From a virus (taxonomy: Duplodnaviria > Caudoviricetes): 64,000 bases of DNA. The notes beneath the pieces are model-generated. The model was not told the origin of the DNA and did not search any database. It saw only the letters and a program-made list of their open reading frames with translations. Below, piece by piece: positions 31,127 through 46,069 of this stretch. Every line of letters begins with the position of its first letter. The stretch's first letter is position 1. Both the position numbers and the translations under genes were made by a program. The stretch spans positions 908-64,907 of IMG/VR virus record IMGVR_UViG_3300029914_000023. One strand, written 5' to 3'.

Positions 31127-32353
31127 CTATTCCTGCTCGTTCGTCCATCCCTCCGGGCCACAAGGCTGAAACAGTAGGCCATCGTACAGAACAAGAGAGC
31201 CGGGTCGGTCTGCGCCGCCCTCTGCTACTCGAACTCTCAGGATATTGCGCACCCGCTCGTTGATGATCTGGCCTTGGGGAACACGCCAAACATATCGTGT
31301 GCCCTGCACTCCAGTGCGGATGGTGTTACAGCGGATATGCGGGTCCCACTGACGACCAGACCGACCCCAGATAGTGACGTGAGAACCACGATCACCCGTA
31401 GGGAAGGGCTGCCAAGAACCCGCCTGAAGCGGTGTCCCTCTATCACGAACAGCTTGCCGCAATTCGGCCCGCTCTTCCGTAGTCGGAACTCGTGTTGGAT
31501 TGTTCGTGAAGGACATGTACAGTCCCTCAATCTCGAAGACAGTTGGAGACATTACTGTTGGTGTCTCCCGCTCCGCTCTAGCCGCATCCTCGCGGGCCTT
31601 CTCCTCCTTCCAATGAGGGTCTTCCTTCACCGGTTGTACTTTCCACACGTTCCGCAAGTCGCGGTCCGGCTTCACACTGAGCTTCTTCCCCAGCATACCG
31701 GCTCCGAGAATCCAGTCCACGTCGTCATCCTTGTGACGGAATCTCTCGAAGAACGCTTGCAACTTCTTGGAGGACGGCTCTAACGCCGAACCGAGAACGG
31801 CTCTGGGCGCTTCGGGGTCCACCATAATCAGCTTGGTGCCGATCAAGCACAGCTTCGTCACCCGCTGAGAGAACAACCACGAAGGCATAGTCCGATACTC
31901 GAAGTGACCATGCTCCGTGCGAATGTCGCCATAGTGTCCATACGTGCTACGCCGACGCTCAACGCACTCTGTCTGAGGCAGAATGTCCAGCCCCTCCAGA
32001 TGCTGCGTGAACAAATCCAATGCGTCACGTTGTGCCTTCGTACAAGAAGGCCGGTCCACATGAACGTGACCGCCAAGCGTGATAGTCCGCTCAGGTGCAT
32101 GAATCCACGCACCAGCCCGCCACTTCCCAGTCGGGGTGACGGTTGCAAAATCATTGAAGGAAACCTTGAGGTTCTGAATCAACTTGCGAACAGAGAACTC
32201 CGGCTTCGGGTGCGGCTCGATAACCCAGTTGCTGTGGTCCAGGCCCCACGGAACATTCATCTCCGGTCGGCCCGTGAACTGCTTGATGTGACCTTCCTCA
32301 ACCACGATGAACTCCGGGTCAGCACCCAGAAGGAAGTCATTTAACAAAGGCAT
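31127..32353 (-). CDS. phiEco32-like COOH.NH2 ligase type 2
   Basis: LGADPEF...E..P.P...GGHVH...R...YG..G..R...EYRT. Confidence 0.8.
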   Translation of the reverse strand: MPLLNDFLLGADPEFIVVEEGHIKQFTGRPEMNVPWGLDHSNWVIEPHPKPEFSVRKLIQNLKVSFNDFATVTPTGKWRAGAWIHAPERTITLGGHVHVDRPSCTKAQRDALDLFTQHLEGLDILPQTECVERRRSTYGHYGDIRTEHGHFEYRTMPSWLFSQRVTKLCLIGTKLIMVDPEAPRAVLGSALEPSSKKLQAFFERFRHKDDDVDWILGAGMLGKKLSVKPDRDLRNVWKVQPVKEDPHWKEEKAREDAARAERETPTVMSPTVFEIEGLYMSFTNNPTRVPTTEERAELRQAVRDRGTPLQAGSWQPFPTGDRGSHVTIWGRSGRQWDPHIRCNTIRTGVQGTRYVWRVPQGQIINERVRNILRVRVAEGGADRPGSLVLYDGLLFQPCGPEGWTNEQE

Positions 32354-32927
32354 GACGTAGCGTCCTCGTAATCCGCTCCCATTTACGCGAGAGTGTCTGT
32401 TGAGGAATCCCCAAAGTCTCAGATGCTTCCTGTTGGGTCTTCCCCTGCAAAGCAAGCTCCTCGAAAATCTCGTAGTCTTCCGTACTTAGAAGCTGCTCTA
32501 CTGTCAGCAGAACATCCATAAGCTCGGGACTGGAGTCCCCCGGAAGATCAAACCCCGGAACATCCAGAGAGACTTCTTTTCTCCGGCGCTCCAAACGGCG
32601 CTGATCGTACATGACCCCCATCATAATACGATGCACCCATGTAGTGAACAGGCTCTCCCCCCGGAACGTCTCCAGGTTCATCATCACCTTGTCCACCGCC
32701 TCCGTCAGCAAGTCCGGGTCCGACTTGCGAAGGATAACGTACATTACAGCCTGAGCGTGCTGCTCCAGAATGGTTCGCAACTCGTGCTCGATGGTCTCTT
32801 GAATGGGACCGCCGTCAGCCTTCTTGAGCCACTGGTCGTATAGATAGTTCTCAAGGTCGCGCCGGATGTCCTTAGAGTCCAGACCAGGATCGTCCGTAAG
32901 CACCGCCGACAGATTCGTAACATTCAT
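32337..32927 (-). CDS. ECF-type sigma-70 factor
   Basis: FRGESLFTTWVHRI (region 2); GKTQQEASETLGI (region 4 HTH). Confidence 0.85.
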   Translation of the reverse strand: MNVTNLSAVLTDDPGLDSKDIRRDLENYLYDQWLKKADGGPIQETIEHELRTILEQHAQAVMYVILRKSDPDLLTEAVDKVMMNLETFRGESLFTTWVHRIMMGVMYDQRRLERRRKEVSLDVPGFDLPGDSSPELMDVLLTVEQLLSTEDYEIFEELALQGKTQQEASETLGIPQQTLSRKWERITRTLRHAFVK

Positions 32928-34099: not shown

Positions 34100-34873
34100 T
34101 CATGCTTCCCTCACGGGGCAGCCGTTCGCAATCCAGCGGACGACTCGATTGGTGAGCTTCACGATACAACTGCGATGCTCGTCAGACACACCGGGAGCGG
34201 AGTTGACTTCCAGTACAGTCGCGTGAACGTCCGTATGCTGTTCATCTTCCCACTTGCCCAGCACATCAACCGCGCCGAAGTCCAAGCCAAGTGCAGCCAC
34301 GGCCCGCTTGGATACGTCTCGTACACTCTCGGGGATGTCATCCGTACCGAGTGCATGGAACGTCCAACCGTTCGCGCGGTTCCTTCCAAACTTGGTGTTG
34401 TTCTCCGGCTCCGTTAGCCGCTTCTCGTACACCGCGAGTACCCTTTTGCGATACACCCAGACCCGGTACTCCGTGTCGGAATCGACGATGGGAGTGAAGA
34501 ACTCGCGGCCCTTTGCCACAGCCAGTGCAACCTGTCGGGCATTCTTGCAGACGCGGATGTCCTTCCCCTTGGCGTGCTTGATCTTGCGACCGACCACCGG
34601 AAGTGATGCCACGATGCGGTCAGTCTCGTTGGCTGGGATGATGATGAGAGACTCTTCATTCCCAGCAAATTCACGGAACAAGGCAACGCCCTGCTCCATC
34701 TTGTTCCTGGAAGTGCAGCGAGCATTCAATGCAGGCTGCGGACCGGTGTAGCCAACGCCGTAGCAAACCACAGCGTTGGGTTCAGGAATGTTCTCGGCTT
34801 GCAACTTCTCACGGACAAGACGTTCAAGCATCTGGCCCGTAACCCGAGCGGCCTTCGCAACACGGAATTCCAT
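34100..34873 (-). CDS. ATP-grasp ligase (RimK/YheC-like)
   Basis: EYRVWV...ALGLDFGAVD...VLEVNSAPG. Confidence 0.85.
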   Translation of the reverse strand: MEFRVAKAARVTGQMLERLVREKLQAENIPEPNAVVCYGVGYTGPQPALNARCTSRNKMEQGVALFREFAGNEESLIIIPANETDRIVASLPVVGRKIKHAKGKDIRVCKNARQVALAVAKGREFFTPIVDSDTEYRVWVYRKRVLAVYEKRLTEPENNTKFGRNRANGWTFHALGTDDIPESVRDVSKRAVAALGLDFGAVDVLGKWEDEQHTDVHATVLEVNSAPGVSDEHRSCIVKLTNRVVRWIANGCPVREA

Positions 34874-35925
34874 TACGCCCCCAGTGATCCACCGCAGTCA
34901 GCACAGGTAAGCGACTTCCACGGGAGACCCTTCTCGTTCTGGTTACCCTTGCCACAAGCAGGACATTTCACCACCGCACCCTTGAGTGCCAGATCGGGTG
35001 TGGCGGTTTGGGTAGGGTTCAGCCGCACAGCAGCCGGACCTATCACGGTGCTCGTGGTGGTCGTGGCGGTTGTCGTTGTGGTAGCCTTCGCTCGCTTTGC
35101 ATCCCGCTTGGCGGTCCGCATCTTCGAGTGGTAGCTCTCGCGTCCCTTGCTGTAGTCCGGCTGCCGGTAGTACGTGCAGGTGCTGAACTTCGAGTGGAAC
35201 TCAATCTCGTTCGCGCCGAACACCCACGCGGTATCGTCAGGCAGACTGCCAACACTTACGTTGGCTTTGGTGTCTTGCACCCAGATGCCCCGGATCAACC
35301 GGAACGGCTTGCACGCCTTGATGATAGCTTGGGCCTCGGAAGCCCAATACAACTTGTCGCCGTCATCCGTGAAGCCAAAGCACAGCGGAGAACCGCTACG
35401 CGCCAGCATCAACTTGTCAGGATAGCGGGTAGAGATAGCAGCAATGGCCGCGGATCCCGCCATCTTGTTCAACTCCCGGACACCCTTCTCGTCCATGCCG
35501 TGCTCTGCGATAATAGCCCGGATGATGTCCGAGTCAGTCTCACACGAGCGTTCGTATTTGCCCTGCGTGAACAAATACGTGTGGTTGTTGATGCAGCCGT
35601 TATGCACGACCGCCGTCTCCCCATCCCACATCGGATGATTGTTCTCGTTGACTTCCGGACTTCCAACCGTATACCAACGAGTATGCAGCAACGCAGTCCG
35701 AGTGTTCTCGGTCAGGTGTTGGGTAAGGAAGTCCTCAAACTCTTTGGACTTCGTAAACTTCCACGCAGGCTCAGGAGCCTTGAAGACGTGGATTCCATCG
35801 GGGTTCTCCAGTGCAATACCGGTCGCGTGCTGCCCTCGATGCTCGATGGAGCACAGAAGGAGCACCAGTTCTTCACCGGTTATCGGAGTCGTCCCGAATC
35901 TCCGCACTCCAGCGATTCCACACAT
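34873..35925 (-). CDS. Class II glutamine amidotransferase
   Basis: MCGIAG, RG..ATG, HTR, NNHP, HNG, ETDSD. Confidence 0.9.
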   Translation of the reverse strand: MCGIAGVRRFGTTPITGEELVLLLCSIEHRGQHATGIALENPDGIHVFKAPEPAWKFTKSKEFEDFLTQHLTENTRTALLHTRWYTVGSPEVNENNHPMWDGETAVVHNGCINNHTYLFTQGKYERSCETDSDIIRAIIAEHGMDEKGVRELNKMAGSAAIAAISTRYPDKLMLARSGSPLCFGFTDDGDKLYWASEAQAIIKACKPFRLIRGIWVQDTKANVSVGSLPDDTAWVFGANEIEFHSKFSTCTYYRQPDYSKGRESYHSKMRTAKRDAKRAKATTTTTATTTTSTVIGPAAVRLNPTQTATPDLALKGAVVKCPACGKGNQNEKGLPWKSLTCADCGGSLGA

Positions 35926-37418
35926 TAGTAAGTCCTCCAGGTTCGCGCTTCCGCAACCTTCTTTTTGGTCTCAAGCCACTTCGCCATCGAGTCCTTCTGC
36001 ACGCTCTCCACTGTCCACAGAGGGAACAGTCCAGAGTTCACAAGAATCGCCCGGAAGCCGGAGATAGTCTGAGCCTGACACAGGGGCTTTGGTACGGTGA
36101 TCGCGGTGCCGTTCTCCCGATCCATACCCTTGCTCGAAATGAAAACGTGGGGGTAGTACCGGCGCAGCAACTCTTTGTCTGAGGGGGACCAAAGGGCTGG
36201 CAACTTTCCGGTGATCTTGAACTCACCCGCGTTGTTATAGTCCCAATAGATGTCCATGTCCCGGTGCCCAACCAAGTTGTGCAGCAGGTCTCCGAAGCCG
36301 GACCGACGCCCCGGATTAACATGCAAAGGCAGCCACTTGTAGCCCGCGCTCTTTGGAATGGCTGACTGGAAGTTCGGCGGAAATGTCTGGAACGTCAACG
36401 GGATACCCATCAACAAATGGTTCCGCATCTCCGCAATCTCGTCGGGGTCCGGCTGGATGCACGCAGGCAGAATCATCTCGGCCTCGTCATTCGTCAAACC
36501 CCGGTCCCTGGGGATGCCCCAGCTAGGCGCAAAGTCCGCCTCGTAATCGAATACAAACGGAGCATCCCCACTTCTCGTAAGAAGATGGTACAAAATGTAC
36601 GCATCGTCGTCCCGGCCCTTGTACAGCTTGGCCAGTCCGCGAAGCAGATTCCTTGCCGTTGCTTCCGGCGTCTTCTCTTTCCAGCTAGTCGTAATCTCCG
36701 GATCAAGGATAGCCAGCTTCGACGTACATACAGCTATAAAAGCGGTGGTAGGCGATTGAAGCCATGACGGAAGACTCCGGTACTCATACCCATGCTTCTG
36801 AATACGGAAGTCTCCGGGCAATCCATAAGGAGCATTGTGAAATTGATCTCCTCGCATCCGTCGATCCCATTCGCGCACCGGGAACAGCCCGCTGGTCTTG
36901 AGCACGCGAGCGAGTCCGTCGAGAGCGGCGACTTCTTCGGTTCTAGTAGGACGCTTCCGACCAAAATGGACATGCCCTCCCATCCCATCTCCGGCGAAGT
37001 ACGCACCGGCTCTCCACAGGAAAGCACCCGCCCGAGCATTATACACTCGGTACAGCCAGCGCAACTCGGTCAGGATACTTGCCACATGCTCCACAACTGA
37101 GGGGGAGGGCCAAGGGCGAAGCTCCACAAGCCGTTCATTCTGGTCCGCGCCAGCCGCCAGTCCCACCCTGAGACCGCAGCTTGCCGCTTCAATGCGATTC
37201 CCATCGTTGTCCCGGAAGCAAAACTCCGGGTCGGAACCTACACAAAAGTGGTTGAGATACCTTCCTGTGGCAGTGAAGGTTGAGGGCGACAGCAGTGGTT
37301 CGTGAGTCATGGCCCAAGAAGCCATCGCCTGATCCCGTGATGTAACGATCTCGGGGTTCTCACCCATCAAGATAGCCCGCAAGAAAGTCTGTCTGTTCAT
37401 TGGAGTTACGCTCTCCAC
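35925..37418 (-). CDS. phiEco32-like COOH.NH2 ligase type 2
   Basis: VGSDPEF, ELRP, GGHVHFG, GYEYRSL. Confidence 0.8.
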   Translation of the reverse strand: MESVTPMNRQTFLRAILMGENPEIVTSRDQAMASWAMTHEPLLSPSTFTATGRYLNHFCVGSDPEFCFRDNDGNRIEAASCGLRVGLAAGADQNERLVELRPWPSPSVVEHVASILTELRWLYRVYNARAGAFLWRAGAYFAGDGMGGHVHFGRKRPTRTEEVAALDGLARVLKTSGLFPVREWDRRMRGDQFHNAPYGLPGDFRIQKHGYEYRSLPSWLQSPTTAFIAVCTSKLAILDPEITTSWKEKTPEATARNLLRGLAKLYKGRDDDAYILYHLLTRSGDAPFVFDYEADFAPSWGIPRDRGLTNDEAEMILPACIQPDPDEIAEMRNHLLMGIPLTFQTFPPNFQSAIPKSAGYKWLPLHVNPGRRSGFGDLLHNLVGHRDMDIYWDYNNAGEFKITGKLPALWSPSDKELLRRYYPHVFISSKGMDRENGTAITVPKPLCQAQTISGFRAILVNSGLFPLWTVESVQKDSMAKWLETKKKVAEARTWRTY

Positions 37419-39696: not shown

Positions 39697-40047
39697 TTAT
39701 TCTGCCCAGCGTCCGTCGTAGTTCTCCCAACTTTGCCAGCCACGGCGATAGTTGGGATACGACGGTATCCCCCGCTCAGCAGTTACCTTGTCCTCGGCAG
39801 TATCCGCACGCAAATCAGTGAGACAGGACTTCTTGCCGCAGTACAGGTAAGAATCTGAAGACTTCGTTGTCACTGGCGCACCACACGCGCACTTGTGACT
39901 CGTCACGATAATTCCACGCCCCTTACACAGGGAGCAAGTTGAGAACAGCCCCGTGTGTGGGGAGAATACTCGACCATTTGCACACACGGAGCACCGTTCA
40001 TATTCGTACTTTACTTCGTCGGAAGCCGCCTGCATAACGCTCTCCAC
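39697..40047 (-). CDS. DnaJ-type zinc-finger small protein
   Basis: CxxCxxG...CxxCxGxG. Confidence 0.55.
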   Translation of the reverse strand: MESVMQAASDEVKYEYERCSVCANGRVFSPHTGLFSTCSLCKGRGIIVTSHKCACGAPVTTKSSDSYLYCGKKSCLTDLRADTAEDKVTAERGIPSYPNYRRGWQSWENYDGRWAE

Positions 40048-41342
40048 GTCGCGCTCATCCCATTGGACTCACCCGACCAAGGGCCTTCCAGCACCCAGTT
40101 GCGTTCCACATCCTCGAAGTTCGGGAGCACAGCCTCGATGCCGCCCTCCACGATCATCTTGAATGCCCGCTCGCTGTTCGCATCACGAGTAACGCCGTCA
40201 TTGGCGAGCAACGTGTAGAACATCGACATGTGTTTGGTCACATATTCGCGTGCTGCTTTCACGTCGCAGAAGTTCACGATGTCACGAGCCGCCTGCTCGT
40301 CGATGTCAAGGTGGCTCCGATAGCCCGCCTTGCCCACCTTCAAGCCCGACCGCACGAGGTTGAGGACCAGATGCGCCACTTCAGGAGCCGCCAGCCACGC
40401 ATTCGACAGGACTCGATACTCCAATCCGTGCTTCGGCTTGCGATACTCACCGGCCCGGCCATAGAACTGCCGACGAACCGGAGTGTCCAGCGAAGCGAAC
40501 ATCGCCACCGCAGGAATCGCAGCAATCACATCACACGCCCGGACCATCTCAGCCGCATCCTCATCGTTCAGAGGCGCGATGCCAAAGTGAACATGCCCGC
40601 CAGCAAAGCGCAAGCGGAAGTCCCGTGCCGCCACCGGAAGCTCAGGGTTATCGCCATACGCATTCAGCGAAGGCATACAGCCCAAAGCGATGTCCTCGTC
40701 AGCCGCGCTGTTCATCGTGATGGCCGGAATGGTGAACGTGTTCTTCACCGTAAGCTGTGCCGTCCGATCAAATGCGCGAGCCGCCTTGATGACACTGTTG
40801 AGGCCATCCCGCAGATAATTGATGAGATAGCCGTGGCAATGCACCGGATGAATGTAGCATTCCGCTGCGAAGCCATCCCGATAGGAGTACGCCGTCAACC
40901 GGGAATCAATCGATCCGAACGAGGGCTTGATGTGGCTGTACTTCTTCTGCTGTTCTTCCTGCTTCGGAAGATACTTGAACGCTGGTAGCAAAGACTTATG
41001 GACCTTGCCACGAACCACGAAAATCTCGGGGTCACTGCCAGTGCAGGAGTTGATCCGCTGTGACACGGACATGATATAACGGTCCTGCGGAACTTCCGCC
41101 TGATCGTACACACGCACCTGCTGCCGGACGCTGTAACCCTTCCAGCGATAGTTCGGGTTCGCGGGATGCAGGGTGAGCGGCGAAGAAAGGTTCGCCAAGT
41201 TAAAAATCTCCCCCTGCTTCAACGTATACAGGGTGCCTACGGGTTGCCAGATTCTAAGATGGTCGCCCCAGCTTCCTCCGGGATTCGGCACATCGAATAC
41301 GGCACCCTCTTCCAGTTCGGTCCAGTCAATGTTACGCGACAC
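40011..41342 (-). CDS. phiEco32-like COOH.NH2 ligase type 2
   Basis: TGSDPEIF, DGFAAE, GC.P..NAY, AGGHVHFG, RRQFYGRAGEYR, LEYRVLSN. Confidence 0.9.
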   Translation of the reverse strand: MSRNIDWTELEEGAVFDVPNPGGSWGDHLRIWQPVGTLYTLKQGEIFNLANLSSPLTLHPANPNYRWKGYSVRQQVRVYDQAEVPQDRYIMSVSQRINSCTGSDPEIFVVRGKVHKSLLPAFKYLPKQEEQQKKYSHIKPSFGSIDSRLTAYSYRDGFAAECYIHPVHCHGYLINYLRDGLNSVIKAARAFDRTAQLTVKNTFTIPAITMNSAADEDIALGCMPSLNAYGDNPELPVAARDFRLRFAGGHVHFGIAPLNDEDAAEMVRACDVIAAIPAVAMFASLDTPVRRQFYGRAGEYRKPKHGLEYRVLSNAWLAAPEVAHLVLNLVRSGLKVGKAGYRSHLDIDEQAARDIVNFCDVKAAREYVTKHMSMFYTLLANDGVTRDANSERAFKMIVEGGIEAVLPNFEDVERNWVLEGPWSGESNGMSATWRALCRRLPTK

Positions 41343-42289: not shown

Positions 42290-43639
42290 TCATGCCAGTT
42301 CTCCGAAGGCGTGTTCGTAGGCAGTGATGTAGTCAACAACGGCTTCACTCCAACCATCAATGTGATGGTAGTCGCCGTAGCAGACCCCGTTCTGGTAAGA
42401 AGCCACGTTGATGACGTAGCCCTTCTTGCCTTTACCCGGAGCGGGGACTGCCGTGTGCGACTGCTCGTCCGTGATGATGATAAGACGGTCGAAGCCTTCG
42501 GTCTTGGCAATGGTCACAGCGCGATCTGTGTTGGTCCCGCCACTGTGCCCGGAGTTCTTGATCGCATCCGCCAGAGCAAAGCCCCGACGCGGACGGATAA
42601 GACCCGCCGTCGAACCGAAGACAACCAATTGAACCTCTTCGCAGATTTCGCGCAGCAGCATGGCCAATCCTACCGCCGCATCGACACGCTGAAGTTCCGA
42701 CTTCATTGAAACCGGGCAACACATACTGCCCGAGTTGTCCACGCACAGCACAGTCTTCCCCGGCAGCTTCGGATGCCCCTGCAAGCAGGAGAACATCGCA
42801 GCTTCCAGTTCCGGCTCCAGCTTCGGAGCGTACCGTGCAGCCGTGATAAAGCGAAACGGAAGGACGCGCTCAGTGTTCATCGTCTTCAGGCCGTCACGGA
42901 TGGCCTCCATCGGAACACCAGCTTCCGTCATATTCCGCAAGTTGCGCAGCAGAGCCAACGCTCCGAGCTTCTTCTCCGCAAGGAGCCGCTCGAAGGTGCC
43001 CTTCTTGTCGGCACCACCCGAAAGCTGGACTTCCCATGTGTCTGGGGTTGTCAGCTTCCCGTCGATGAGCCGCTTCCAGAGCGCGTCCTGCTCGTCCCCC
43101 TTCGGTTTCGCATGGATAAGGAACAGCACATCGCGCAGTTTGATAGCGTCTCCCTGCCGGTCATACTTGGCCAGAGAGAATTCGTCGAACTTGCCAAACG
43201 CTCGCGCCAGACCCTTCTTCATCTGGTTCGGGAGCATCTTCTTGCCGCCCACCCAGAACAGGGAGATAAGCTCACCCAGTTCATCGGGACGGCCAATCGT
43301 GCGATAGATTGCATCCGAAAGGACCGCACGAGTCTCCTTCGTGTTGGCCCGTGCCAACGTAGCCAGCAGCCACAGCGGTGCATGGCGCAGCTTCATCGTG
43401 AAGCGAGCTTCGGTTGCCAGATCAGCCACGATCTTCTCCCCGTCCTTGCGCTTCAGAAGCTCCGCGACCTCGTGCATCATCCGGTCGGCAACGGAGATAC
43501 CATCCTCGTAGAAGGTATCCTCGAACAACATGCACGCCATAACAGTCCGGCGCAGTTGGTGGTAGGCGTCAATTCGGTCCGCTTTCGCACCTTCATGAGT
43601 GAAGATGGGCGGCTTCGCAATAGCGATGTTCGTTCGCAT
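42290..43639 (-). CDS. rsr: Ro60/Rsr TROVE-domain RNA-binding protein with vWA domain
   Basis: THEG...FEDTFYE...LAKY...TWE..LS...ALLRNLRNM...LPFRF...VDNSGSM...GGT...IITDEQ...GWSE; AAGGAG SD before ATG 43639. Confidence 0.92.
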   Translation of the reverse strand: MRTNIAIAKPPIFTHEGAKADRIDAYHQLRRTVMACMLFEDTFYEDGISVADRMMHEVAELLKRKDGEKIVADLATEARFTMKLRHAPLWLLATLARANTKETRAVLSDAIYRTIGRPDELGELISLFWVGGKKMLPNQMKKGLARAFGKFDEFSLAKYDRQGDAIKLRDVLFLIHAKPKGDEQDALWKRLIDGKLTTPDTWEVQLSGGADKKGTFERLLAEKKLGALALLRNLRNMTEAGVPMEAIRDGLKTMNTERVLPFRFITAARYAPKLEPELEAAMFSCLQGHPKLPGKTVLCVDNSGSMCCPVSMKSELQRVDAAVGLAMLLREICEEVQLVVFGSTAGLIRPRRGFALADAIKNSGHSGGTNTDRAVTIAKTEGFDRLIIITDEQSHTAVPAPGKGKKGYVINVASYQNGVCYGDYHHIDGWSEAVVDYITAYEHAFGELA

Positions 43640-43835
43640 AACGAGTCTCCTTGTTAATTGTTGACGTGAGAGGGGTTTACAGCCTGGTGCTTGGGAGTCG
43701 GGAATACCAAAGCCGTTCCTCGTATTCCTGCCGTCGTTTAAGACTCGCCGTAACGGACAGAGAGTCTCCCAAGTGCGAGTCACCAAGATTCCAATGACTG
43801 CCAGTTCGCGGGACCCACCAGGCTGTAAACCCCTC

Positions 43836-44318
43836 CTACTTCTTCGGTCTGCCCACCAGCACCAAGTTTTTGCCAGTCATACGGAGAGTGAATTGCTCTA
43901 CCGTATGCGTAGGTTGGGCCAGACGCAGAAGATGTTGAATCCACGGTGTGAACGTCCTTGTGCCGTTGTACATCACAGCGTCGGGCTTCACACAGCATGG
44001 GCACACCACGAATGGAACCTTGTTCCTCGCGGCGTACATAATGATGTGGTCGGTTGCCTCGTCCGGGTGCATCCCCAAGACGAGCGAGTACCGATCCATG
44101 CAATCAAACTTGAAGTAACCCCACTTCTGTCCGGGGCGACCCTTGGACAACCGGTGCCGTTTATCAATGACGGTCACATGCCGGAAGCCGTGTTCATACA
44201 AGGCCATGCGGAGGTAGCCTTTACCACCTGCAACGTCGGCGACCTTGGCTTGTACATGCTGGGGGAACTGGGAGGCTACCAACTTAGCCATCAAATCGAA
44301 ACGTCGGCGGTCTCCCAT
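43836..44318 (-). CDS. SAM-dependent methyltransferase
   Basis: VADVAGGKG motif I; GMHPDEAT...VCPCC; GGAGG SD. Confidence 0.75.
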   Translation of the reverse strand: MGDRRRFDLMAKLVASQFPQHVQAKVADVAGGKGYLRMALYEHGFRHVTVIDKRHRLSKGRPGQKWGYFKFDCMDRYSLVLGMHPDEATDHIIMYAARNKVPFVVCPCCVKPDAVMYNGTRTFTPWIQHLLRLAQPTHTVEQFTLRMTGKNLVLVGRPKK

Positions 44319-44333
44319 ACTTCCTCCTGATTC

Positions 44334-44475
44334 ATTGGGTGGAACAGGCGTAGCAGTAACGTAGCGCTTTGCCAATTAAGCTACAGTCCCCATTGATTTT
44401 GGGGGGACCGACAGGACTCGAACCTGCAATCTCTCTATTAACAGTAGAAGTAACTGCCACTATCACCAACCCAAT
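44334..44475 (-). ncRNA. YrlA-like Y RNA containing a circularly permuted tRNA domain
   Basis: Terminal stem AUUGGGU/ACCCAAU plus GUGGCAGU/ACUGCUAC encloses an anticodon-like arm, T arm (GCAGG-UUCGAGU-CCUGU), loop-closed acceptor stem (CGGUCCCC/GGGGACUG) and D arm. Confidence 0.85.
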
Positions 44476-44479
44476 CTCT

Positions 44480-44565
44480 TTCCGGTGGAATAAGCGCAAC
44501 GGTACATTTTTTGTCCTGGGTTAGAGGACATTTTTCAGAAGTAACCGTTACTTCACCAACCGGAA
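44480..44565 (-). ncRNA. Y-RNA-like ncRNA 2
   Basis: Same bipartite terminal stem and GUUACUUC motif. Confidence 0.75.
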
Positions 44566-44624
44566 TCCTGTTACCTCGGCATCCCACTTCTGCTGATGGG
44601 GTGTCATGGTTGCACCAGAAGTCA

Positions 44625-44697
44625 TGAGCGGAGAACTGGCGATGCGGCACGTTTTATCGCCCAATGATGAAGTAACCGCATCTTTCACTACCGCTCA
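44625..44697 (-). ncRNA. Y-RNA-like ncRNA 3
   Basis: UGAGCGG/CCGCUCA and GAUGCGGU/GCCGCAUC stems; UAGUGA / GUUCU internal loop. Confidence 0.8.
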
Positions 44698-44702
44698 ACT
44701 CG

Positions 44703-45074
44703 TTACAGGGCCTCGACCAGAACGCGAACGGTCCTGCCCGTGTTGTGATTCTTGACGCGCTGGATTGTGTCCTTGGCCTGATTGGTTGCCCGTTTCAGGT
44801 TGTCCACGTTGACGGTCAACGCGCGGAAGTCGGTTCCAGGGAGCTTTTTGCCCCAGGTCTTGCCAAGGGGAGCGCCCCCGAGTGTGAAGCCTGCTGCCTT
44901 GAGGGGCAGCGCCGATGTGCGGACCAGCAATGTGAGCGCACGGTGAGTCGGGGCATTGGCGGCGGCGAGGATAAAGTCATTGTTTGCCTTCGCTTCCTTC
45001 CCTACACGAACGGCGAATTCGTCGTTCACGGTGGTTGTGAATCCGTAAGCGCCAGGTGCTTTACGTTTGCACAT
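44703..45074 (-). CDS. Hypothetical basic protein inside the Y RNA array
   Basis: AAAGGAG SD before ATG 45074. Confidence 0.55.
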   Translation of the reverse strand: MCKRKAPGAYGFTTTVNDEFAVRVGKEAKANNDFILAAANAPTHRALTLLVRTSALPLKAAGFTLGGAPLGKTWGKKLPGTDFRALTVNVDNLKRATNQAKDTIQRVKNHNTGRTVRVLVEAL

Positions 45075-45096
45075 GGTATCTCCTTTGGGTTCAATC

Positions 45097-45167
45097 ATTC
45101 CGAGAGAACAAACGCTGCGGTCGTTTTTCATTGCGAGTGAAGTAACCGCAACTACACTACCCAGAAT
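45097..45167 (-). ncRNA. Y-RNA-like ncRNA 4
   Basis: AUUCUGGG/CUCGGAAU and GUUGCGGU/ACCGCAGC stems; same conserved loops. Confidence 0.8.
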
Positions 45168-45172
45168 CTTTA

Positions 45173-45260
45173 TGCCGGAGAACAGGCGGAACAGTTGCCC
45201 CCAGCCGAAGCTGGGATTTTCGCCAAATGAAAGAAGTAACTGTTCCTATCACTACCGGCA
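45173..45260 (-). ncRNA. Y-RNA-like ncRNA 5
   Basis: UGCCGG/CCGGCA and GGAACAGUU/AACUGUUCC stems; extra UUCG tetraloop hairpin. Confidence 0.8.
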
Positions 45261-46069
45261 AGCTCGTTATTTGCAGGTGAACTGTGTCTTACAACGGGGG
45301 CAGATCACCTGCTGTGCCTTCCCACGCGCCGAAACGGTGATGGGAGGATTGTCATTCGGTTTGTCCCGCTGGCAGGAGGGACAGTACGCCACCCAGTGAT
45401 GTCCGGGCTTGATGTTCTTCGGGTTCTTCGCAGTTGCCATGATGTCTCCTTAAAGCGGTGGGTGCTTTCATCCGTTAGGAAGTGGCGAGAGTCAGCCTCA
45501 GCACCCATAATCTTCACACCCCTCTAGGGCCTTATCGCCCTAGAAGCTATTCCCCAAACAGCGAGGTCGGTTCCCGTCATTAGCGGGGCCTAGAGGGGGC
45601 AAACCTTACCAGAGGCACTTTGAGCCACAACTAAGGCCACGAAACATCCACAGTCCAAGTGACGGCACCAAAGGCTTGGTTCGGTTTGGGGACTCAAACC
45701 TTTTTGTGGGCCACATGCCAGTCGGGGCAGTAGCGACAAGCATACGCTACCATCTCCTCTTCTGGATGCAGCTTCTTGAGTGCTCGAATGTGGGCCTCAG
45801 CCGCTCCCTTGCTTCGGTGAGGATGCTTCCGAGCGCAAGAATGCTTCATATCGCGGTAGAGCAGCAGTCGGCCTACACTCATTACAGGCCCCGCTTCTTC
45901 AGCGCATCCTTCTTCTTACGCTTAAGAGCGCGATATGCTTCCTTCTCCTGCTGCGGGGTGTCGAACTGCTTCCCCGTTCTCTTGCGATCACGCTTGGCAG
46001 CGGCTTTGGTGCCGTACCGACGACGAGCAGCTTTCCCTGTTGCGGTTGCCATGTTGTCTCCTCCAAACT

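Follow-up and report, generated by a model that had tools for sequence, protein, structure and literature searches.

Upstream of its Ro60 gene, a virus of the Caudoviricetes (IMG/VR record IMGVR_UViG_3300029914_000023) carries a minus-strand cluster of exactly five Y-like RNAs, here called A to E. The stretch of DNA analysed (the window; 64,000 nucleotides, positions 908 to 64,907 of the record) is nearly all of this complete 64.9-kb virus record, which bears terminal repeats. The Ro60 orthologue also matches the RNA-binding protein family PHROG 850 (2.5e-44), and is 45-52% identical to the Ro60 proteins of Xanthomonas, Caulobacter and Brevundimonas phages. From the end of RNA E to the start codon of this gene there are 548 nt, with the RNA upstream and on the same strand, well inside the ~4 kb from Ro60 expected of a YrlA gene.

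All five RNAs have a common two-stem scaffold and carry the conserved sequence GUUACUUC, and the stems and 5′ motif of A to D are also those of E. A covariance model (R1) built from the five window RNAs, when run with its filters off, gives exactly five matches in the 64-kb window with scores of 60-83 bits. At the place of the proposed Ro60 contact near the 5′ end, these RNAs read GGUGAUAG, AGUGAUAG, AGUGAAAG, GGUGAAG or AGUGUAG, which is similar to the YrlA motif GNCGAAN(0-1)G but one or two positions off it. The five RNAs are probably cut from a single transcript that runs into the Ro60 gene; a scan for promoters and terminators gave matches at chance level only.

An initial annotation of this DNA had proposed that each RNA displays a different mimic of an anticodon stem-loop after the conserved ACUUC. 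Indeed, four of the five carry directly after ACUUC a hairpin whose 7-nt loop has U in its second and a purine in its sixth position, on stems of 3 bp (C), 4 bp (A and B) or 5 bp (E); for some of them, 3-4 bp had been described. The fifth, RNA D, has no hairpin adjoining ACUUC, and its hairpin further on, GUCCU-CUAACCC-AGGAC, is the weaker match that had been recognised from the start, with C at loop position 6. The hairpins of A, B, C and D are present in minimum-energy structures (RNAfold), and the fold of RNA A has a z-score of -4.0. As a control for chance, the 30 nt after CUUC were shuffled and RNAs were counted if, no more than 9 nt from CUUC, they began a hairpin with a stem of 3 bp or longer and a 7-nt loop carrying both U2 and R6 (a purine at position 6). 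Over 20,000 shuffles the mean was 0.31 RNAs; three RNAs were reached in 0.2% of cases and the observed four in none, ruling out a chance origin of the hairpins.

The phage's own tRNA-Pro and tRNA-Gln have the anticodon loops UUUGGGA and CUUUGGA, both with G at position 37 as had been noted. UUGGG is common to the loops of tRNA-Pro and RNA C, and UUUGG to those of tRNA-Gln and RNA A. For this agreement of the A and C triplets with tRNA-Gln and tRNA-Pro, the hand-estimated probability of at least two matches between five loops and five anticodons is P ~0.05, and the agreement is not relied on here.

The tRNA-like module of RNA E and its homologues

RNA E is of the YrlA type. Its tRNA-like module starts with an anticodon arm and a 5-nt variable loop and continues with the T arm, the closed acceptor stem and the D arm. 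These last three stand in the order of YrlA, with tRNA-like conserved bases in their loops, and all three helices covary in 12 homologues. The putative anticodon arm has the 5-bp stem of a tRNA, the loop CUGUUAA and then AGAUU before the T stem. Its spacing matches a tRNA exactly, with the arm at 27-43, the variable loop at 44-48 and the T stem starting at 49, and numbering that begins at the RNA's first paired base puts the loop bases at 32-38. The junction with the Ro-binding stem is between tRNA positions 26 and 27, and the arm therefore stays a free hairpin with the loop CUGUUAA. It is a local hairpin, and no closing stem encloses the T-acceptor-D block.

Over the full length of the Rfam YrlA model (RF02553), RNA E scores 30.6 bits (E = 0.00058), short of the cut-off of 69. 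Its first 70 nt score 27.8 bits against the Rfam tRNA model (RF00005), where mismatches occur in the acceptor and D stems and the cut-off of 29 is not reached, and ARAGORN calls no tRNA at RNA E. When positions 44403-44475 (minus strand) are aligned with tRNA, a strand of the Ro-binding stem takes the place of both the D arm and the acceptor's 5′ strand. Such an alignment fits the published proposal of an origin of YrlA from two tandem tRNAs, with the anticodon arm of the first tRNA apparently intact here.

The acceptor-like stem of E (44384-44410) has a further tRNA-like feature. Its 3′ strand is followed by C and then CCA, and a G precedes its 5′ strand, so that cleavage by RNase P and trimming could leave a CCA end. 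This encoded CCA, together with a complete set of anticodon, T, D and acceptor arms, might suggest that such Y RNAs are aminoacylated or decoding tRNA-like molecules. We consider that very improbable. The acceptor stems of most E homologues are closed by loops without CCA (GAAA in Olaya), the ribosome would have difficulty accommodating a long helix at position 26 that is bound by Ro60, and general aminoacylation of YrlA was judged unlikely by Chen 2014.

Relatives of the five RNAs were collected from IMG/VR. A first DNA pattern, GTGAWAG-N5-GTTACTTC, proved too loose, since most of the 80 loci listed were single chance matches, and its output was filtered with model R1; a tightened pattern added few new loci. 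In the filtered set, many IMG/VR phages have Y-like RNAs, and these frequently form arrays. Cultured phages have them as well, without annotation: Xanthomonas phage Olaya has five model matches upstream of its Ro60 gene, Caulobacter phage CcrColossus has approximately nine matches and Brevundimonas phage Bambus has four, and there are others in crAss001 and in a Rhizobium phage. Single arrays mix triplets, such as GUU and CUC in Olaya or GUU and CUG in CcrColossus. Three model hits with the look of coding sequence (L069, L004 and L079; E 0.02-0.09) were excluded, and the stretches L135:4624-4767 and L136:2013-2127, 2192-2266 and 2483-2546, which are not standard model hits, were kept out of the statistics. 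Locus L133 of Ralstonia phage RsoM2USA was dropped, having only a tRNA and no match to the model or to YrlA. A YrlA family search of the control genomes found no cellular YrlA.

Choosing the lowest-energy isolated hairpin after ACUUC gave noisy results and pairings that clashed with the T arm, and fixed hairpin rules were therefore adopted. Of the 41 relatives that contain a T arm, 17 form a hairpin with a 7-nt loop at a distance of 3-7 nt ahead of the T stem, and every one of these 17 has U2 and R6; another 8 have no hairpin, as in classical YrlA, and 16 have other loops. The loop CUGUUAA recurs on five different stems (UUCUA/UAGAG, UUCGU/ACGAG, UUUUA/UAAAA, UCAA/UUGA and UUCGA/UCGAG) in phages that include the cultured Olaya and CcrColossus. 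In a count on the named structure, 96% of cells are paired and 4/5 anticodon-stem pairs change on both sides, compared with 35-52% in controls in which the partner strand was slid. When the complete E-type fold was counted in 12 homologues, 93.8% of cells were paired and 18/24 pairs had changed on both sides. Judged from these sequences, the E hairpin is very probably an anticodon-arm homologue under selection.

The behavior of the loop was examined in a census of E-type RNAs, in which IMG/VR was scanned with the pattern ACTTC, eleven free bases, GAGAGGTC, three free bases and GGTTC. This yielded 114 matches in 99 unique contexts, and all but one of the 99 have the two free stem positions paired. 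Within the 98 stem-paired RNAs, loop position 2 (U33) is U in 97, position 6 (R37) is a purine in 97 (A in 75, G in 22) and position 7 (A38) is A in 90, while position 1 is never G. Positions 34 and 35 are nearly free, with 0.38 and 0.10 bits, and the commonest triplets are GUU (20), GCU (17), UGU (12), UGG (6), UCU (5) and GAU (5). Positions 36-37 are UA in 70/99 and GG in 21/99. In tRNAs, U36 goes with t6A37 and G36 with m1G37, and the census pairing follows this rule. A Ro60 homologue is encoded on the same strand in 92 of the 114 loci at a median distance of 351 nt, and many of the 22 others have little flanking sequence.

A scan with a variable gap (6 to 16) found gap 11 in 69 of the 80 matches listed; the union of the fixed- and variable-gap sets is enriched for gap 11, and several other gap lengths still have a 7-nt loop, on a longer stem. 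One pair of RNAs is nearly identical: L109:12118-12264 and L121:11739-11887 agree at 139/149 positions, and within the first 70 nt only positions 34-35 differ (GU versus UC). This hints at a directed change of the triplet.

Such hairpins could also be leftovers of ancestral tRNA genes, retained as spacers or structural elements with a loop whose identity has no function. A dimeric-tRNA origin of Y RNAs has been proposed (Wang 2018), the first 70 nt of E retain their 27.8 bits as a tRNA, the hairpin is lost or altered in many relatives, and tRNA genes are annotated in GenBank over the 5′ parts of two such RNAs. Nevertheless, we rate this explanation as improbable. Neutral decay is not expected to hold U33, R37 and A38 at the census frequencies while stems change, positions 34-35 stay free and the Ro60 proteins are only ~45-52% identical, and 7-nt loops exceed the numbers in shuffles in three separate sets.

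The two annotated genes are a tRNA-Gln (L132 2128-2195), which overlies the 5′ two-thirds of the Y-like RNA L132:2120-2293 of CcrColossus (loop AUCUGGA), and a tRNA-Arg(tct) (L138 1720-1791), which overlies the 5′ two-thirds of the Y-like RNA L138:1720-1830 of Gordonia phage VanLee (loop CUUCUAA). Both are probably Y RNAs and not working tRNAs.

Other ways of combining tRNA and Y RNA parts are also represented. Downstream of the TROVE gene of Bacteroides phage crAss001, the 144-nt stretch L135:4624-4767 scores 46.6 bits as a tRNA and has open acceptor ends with D and T arms. In the place of its anticodon arm is a reversed Y-RNA module, with the 3′ UGUUC strand first and then GGUGUAGAAUAGAGUUACUUC, and the whole looks like a tRNA in which a Ro60 handle replaces the anticodon arm. 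In L033:5049-5195 (loop UUCAUAC) and L093:2842-2980 (loop CUUCUAA), D arm, anticodon arm, variable loop and T arm follow ACUUC in normal tRNA order, which, on the sequence, is a third way to join a tRNA onto a Y stem. In Bambus, L134:6849-7106 matches a permuted tmRNA with 57.9 bits (cut-off 47); it lies ~2.4 kb downstream of Ro60, beside a tRNA-Cys.

Proposed effector ends and the short RNAs A to D

We tentatively read these molecules, with confidence that stops just short of even, as Ro60-linked Y RNAs with an effector end made of tRNA parts, which a partner that reads anticodon loops would recognize, perhaps as a tRNA decoy. The five RNAs would be Ro60-bound Y RNAs of the bacterial YrlA/YrlB kind, with lower stems that carry the motif GGU-R-GUGAUAG and serve Ro60 as a handle. 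What follows the conserved ACUUC would be the effector end, assembled from tRNA parts, and its loop would be maintained since a protein reading anticodon loops binds there.

RNAs A, B and C resemble reduced versions in which only the hairpin and an A-rich single strand are left, while RNA D has lost the hairpin next to ACUUC. Among the relatives, L026:4817-4895 matches L013:1907-2048 at both ends and is without the T, acceptor and D arms. For short relatives, the hairpin with the longest stem that starts no more than 6 nt from CUUC was taken, and merging of RNAs that differed at six or fewer positions in 30 nt brought their number from 94 to 79. Of these 79, 21 have a 7-nt loop (6.6 +/- 2.4 in shuffles), and 16 of the 21 have U2 and R6 (0.8 +/- 0.9 in shuffles). 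A second set was found via neighbouring E-type RNAs; three hits lacking the motif were dropped from it and 49 RNAs were condensed to 47, and it has a 7-nt loop in 15/47 (shuffles 3.5 +/- 1.9) and U2 with R6 in 10 (shuffles 0.42). The steadiest features of short relatives are a UUC...GAA pairing and an A-rich tail (GAAA in 19/46). On these comparisons, we find the case evenly poised as to whether the hairpin of A to C is an anticodon-arm homologue under selection.

The initial annotation had suggested examining homologues for a 7-nt loop with U33 and R37 around a varying triplet. That pattern, and with it the resemblance to an anticodon arm, holds for the RNAs with a tRNA domain, as judged by census and covariation, but in the short class only about one third keep the 7-nt loop.

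Several observations count against this reading of the RNAs. The 7-nt loop is enriched among short relatives, yet only about a third of them keep it (21/79 and 15/47), and the closest relative of B (Olaya 1999-2073) has the loop UGGCAAU, without U33. A and C represent a single conserved UUGG-type loop in two versions. Classical YrlAs without the hairpin occupy the same arrays, and Streptomyces phage GiJojo has loops of 5, 9 and 11 nt at the hairpin position. Folding calculations are also unfavorable for E: in the single-sequence ensemble the pair probability of its hairpin is only ~0.2, and the proposed fold has -36.5 kcal/mol compared with a minimum of -47.6 kcal/mol, so that another fold is preferred by 11 kcal/mol. 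RNAalifold with 12 homologues recovers the T, acceptor and D arms but pairs CUUC with GAGG, in a register shifted by two, in place of the anticodon stem; the proposed register was retained because its inner pairs covary. The census samples a single subfamily because its pattern fixes the outer stem and variable loop as well as part of the T arm, and RNA E of the window, with the variable loop AGAUU, itself falls outside it. Loop types with U36 or G36 make up 92/99 of the census and may reflect common descent from few ancestors, not a panel. Finally, tblastn matched the RNA ligase of the window in only 1 of 274 related loci and its methyltransferase, as a conserved neighbour of Y RNAs, in none.

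The UUGG motif raises a separate explanation for A and C. It occurs within 18 nt of CUUC in 11/46 short relatives (2.2 +/- 1.4 in shuffles, maximum 7) and sits in loops of 5, 6, 7 and 10 nt, including AUUGG (GiJojo), AUUGGC (L119) and UAUUUGGUUU (L035). What is conserved might therefore be the UUGG sequence, pairing with another RNA, which could be a tRNA through its CCA end or RNA E through its CCAAAA loop; the acceptor loop of E reads CCAAAAUCAAU. We give this little credence. The census contains tRNA-domain RNAs with the loops UUUGGGA (4 cases), AUUGGGA and CUUUGGA, and UUGG may thus simply be the G36-G37 type of anticodon loop.

The proposal of a different mimic on each RNA was in any case overstated. 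D has none after ACUUC, A and C share one loop type, and the CUGUUAA of E is a conserved orthologous loop, not one private to this phage.

Candidate roles of the Y RNA array

If an anticodon-reading partner exists, it may be a host defence nuclease that targets tRNAs. The Y RNA would then bait or compete for this nuclease, making the Ro60 particle a tRNA decoy. By analogy with known systems we deem a counter-defence role the most likely one, while regarding it as doubtful in absolute terms, because of three published findings. Hughes 2020 proposed that YrlA's tRNA-like domain could competitively inhibit an anticodon nuclease. The AriB nuclease of the PARIS system cuts the tRNAs for Lys(UUU), for Thr(UGU) and for Asn(GUU) and needs U36-A-A-U (AriB preprint). 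In phage Bas63, a Ro60-like protein counters a defence system, and the authors conjecture that the 'tRNA genes' nearby could be Y RNAs. Abundant RNAs have also been reported upstream of an Rsr-like gene in a Listeria phage.

Both GUU and UGU, the first and third commonest triplets of the census, are AriB target types. RNA E carries U36-A-A-U as AriB substrates do, and Olaya and CcrColossus have UAAUC. The bait would capture or occupy the nuclease, perhaps passing the nuclease or its products to Ro60 and PNPase. An extended form of this idea, suggested by the loop sequences and unlikely as it stands, is that phage Ro60 particles are programmable anti-defence devices, in which a frame of positions 32, 33, 36, 37 and 38 is kept under tRNA rules and positions 34-35 are swapped to match the host tRNAs that nucleases target.

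Alternatively, the anticodon arm may be kept for host enzymes that modify or handle tRNAs, with the RNA stabilised as a tRNA look-alike or acting as an enzyme sponge instead of a nuclease bait. The agreement of positions 36-37 with the modification rule and the CCA encoded directly after the acceptor 3′ strand of E are consistent with this. So is published work: YrlA is modified by TruB and DusA, the YrlA of M. smegmatis is cut by RNase P and gains CCA, and a tRNA fold was proposed as protection from nucleases (Chen 2014). Even so, a purely protective fold leaves unexplained both the 34-35 changes between near-identical RNAs (L109 and L121) and the several different triplets per array, and the short RNAs keep the hairpin without a tRNA body. 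We view dependence on modifying or processing enzymes as the main rival explanation, though an unlikely one.

The purpose of the tRNA-like end of bacterial and phage Y RNAs has been a standing question since 2014. Thinking has centred on the tRNA elbow because known examples are without an anticodon loop. A large class of Ro60-linked phage Y RNAs with a complete anticodon arm, in which tRNA loop rules are held while the triplet changes, points to a partner that reads anticodon loops. This class also accounts for some of the 'tRNA genes' annotated beside phage Ro60 genes, and the E-type RNAs supply intermediates for the model in which Y RNAs descend from tandem tRNAs.

Neighbouring genes and comparison with known systems

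The features of the locus are collected in Table 1. The AAGGAG ahead of the 123-aa ORF inside the RNA array is a good ribosome-binding site; this ORF matches no Pfam or PHROG family and has zero tblastn matches in the 274 related loci. The same search gave 0/274 for the zinc-ribbon ORF, the 112-aa ORF and the COOH-NH2 ligase. A fixed repair module that travels with the Y RNAs was rejected because the neighbour ORFs of the window are not conserved in these loci (proteins matched in 0-1/274).

Table 1. Positions of the Ro60 gene, the Y-like RNAs and associated elements in the window
Feature	Position	Strand	Basis or remark
Ro60 orthologue, 498 aa, TROVE and vWA domains	42290..43786	-	Pfam TROVE 1.8e-10, VWA_2 7.6e-07
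Small methyltransferase-like ORF between Ro60 and RNA E	43836..44330	-	Pfam Methyltransf_32 4.8e-07
RNA E, YrlA-type, Ro-binding stem and complete tRNA-like module	44334..44475	-	R1 73.7 bits
D arm of E, GCUU-AAUUGGCA-AAGC	44366..44381	-	Rfam alignment, covariation
Closed acceptor-like stem of E, 8 bp, loop starting CCA	44384..44410	-	Sequence reading; helix covaries in homologues
T arm of E, GCAGG-UUCGAGU-CCUGU	44411..44427	-	Rfam alignment, covariation
Probable anticodon-arm homologue of E, UUCUA-CUGUUAA-UAGAG, triplet GUU	44433..44449	-	5 nt (AGAUU) before T stem, as in tRNA
RNA D (short), GUCCU-CUAACCC-AGGAC at 44513-44529	44480..44565	-	R1 61.5 bits, filters off
RNA C (short), hairpin AUC-AUUGGGC-GAU at 44656-44668, then A-rich tail	44626..44696	-	R1 82.6 bits
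123-aa ORF between RNAs C and B, AAGGAG in front	44703..45074	-	Inside RNA array
RNA B (short), hairpin UUCA-CUCGCAA-UGAA at 45127-45141, then A-rich tail	45098..45166	-	R1 60.3 bits, filters off
RNA A, hairpin UUUC-AUUUGGC-GAAA at 45218-45232; second hairpin with UUCG loop at 45200-45215	45174..45259	-	R1 71.5 bits

Beyond the array, ~250 nt without a long ORF (45441-45693) separate the zinc-ribbon ORF from the next ORF, and a terminator-like hairpin lies on the plus strand at 45683-45700. On the other side of Ro60, the minus strand encodes three paralogous phiEco32-like COOH-NH2 ligases and a glutamine amidotransferase (31127-32455, 34873-35925, 35925-37418 and 40011-41342). This set may serve the modification of nucleic acids or metabolites and is unrelated to the Y RNAs.

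The initial annotation knew of no description of anticodon mimics on Y-like RNAs, which is correct only in part. Already in print are the tRNA mimicry of YrlA, phage Ro60 genes, phage YrlAs, a V stem-loop at the same position and the competitor idea. New with respect to the literature searched are the complete anticodon arm on Y RNAs, its conservation by tRNA rules with a variable triplet, the joining point at 26/27 and arrays of five to nine RNAs. That search found no explicit or complete anticodon arm on Y RNAs, although the figures and supplements of Chen 2014, which lay outside it, may show V stem-loops that resemble anticodon arms. Chen 2014 discarded hits that overlapped annotated tandem tRNAs, which may explain why the anticodon-arm class went undescribed.

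The V stem-loop was described as a less conserved element just upstream of the T arm, started by a conserved YUAY, and was interpreted as a variable arm (Chen 2014). The hairpin of E-type RNAs occupies this same position, but differs from the V stem-loop as described in its 5-bp stem, its 7-nt loop with U33, R37 and A38, and an extra 5-nt variable loop before the T stem. In the crystal structure of Salmonella YrlA, the anticodon stem runs on into the Ro-binding stem, and the molecule is described as one that 'lacks the anticodon loop' (Wang 2018). Like Salmonella Typhimurium YrlA (RF02553), RNA E lies beside Ro60 on the same strand and has a Ro-binding stem with a 5′ purine-rich motif, an identical permuted arrangement of T arm, closed acceptor stem and D arm, and a conserved Y-U-A/U-Y element before the T-arm region. 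Unlike it, E has the anticodon arm as a separate, complete hairpin with the Y stem joining at 26/27, and reaches only 30.6 bits against the cut-off of 69. Yrn1 of Deinococcus radiodurans, a Y RNA that tethers Ro60 to PNPase, likewise combines a T arm with what may be an 'anticodon arm' on a 5-bp stem; its loop, however, has 6 nt and its arms follow a different order.

The short RNAs resemble YrlB of Salmonella and M. smegmatis and Yrl1 and Yrl2 of Thermus phage phiLo, which are short Ro60-linked hairpin RNAs beside YrlA or Ro60; those of M. smegmatis are processed from a common precursor. In contrast to the small pyrimidine-rich loop of the YrlB type, A to D have A-rich apical regions (GAAA in 19/46 relatives) with a UUC...GAA hairpin and an A-rich tail.

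Phage tRNA variants reportedly escape tRNA-targeting defences, as van den Berg is said to have described in 2023. Y RNAs of the present class are similar to phage tRNAs of this kind (T5 tRNAs against PARIS) in being phage-encoded and in having anticodon loops of types that are under attack (for Lys UUU, for Thr UGU, for Asn GUU). The T5 molecules are working tRNAs that replace cleaved host tRNAs, whereas those described here are Ro60-linked mimics that fail tRNA criteria, with a putative anti-defence role. The arrays also stand apart in size, with five RNAs in this phage and up to approximately nine model matches in CcrColossus, compared with the short second Y RNAs of the YrlB kind.

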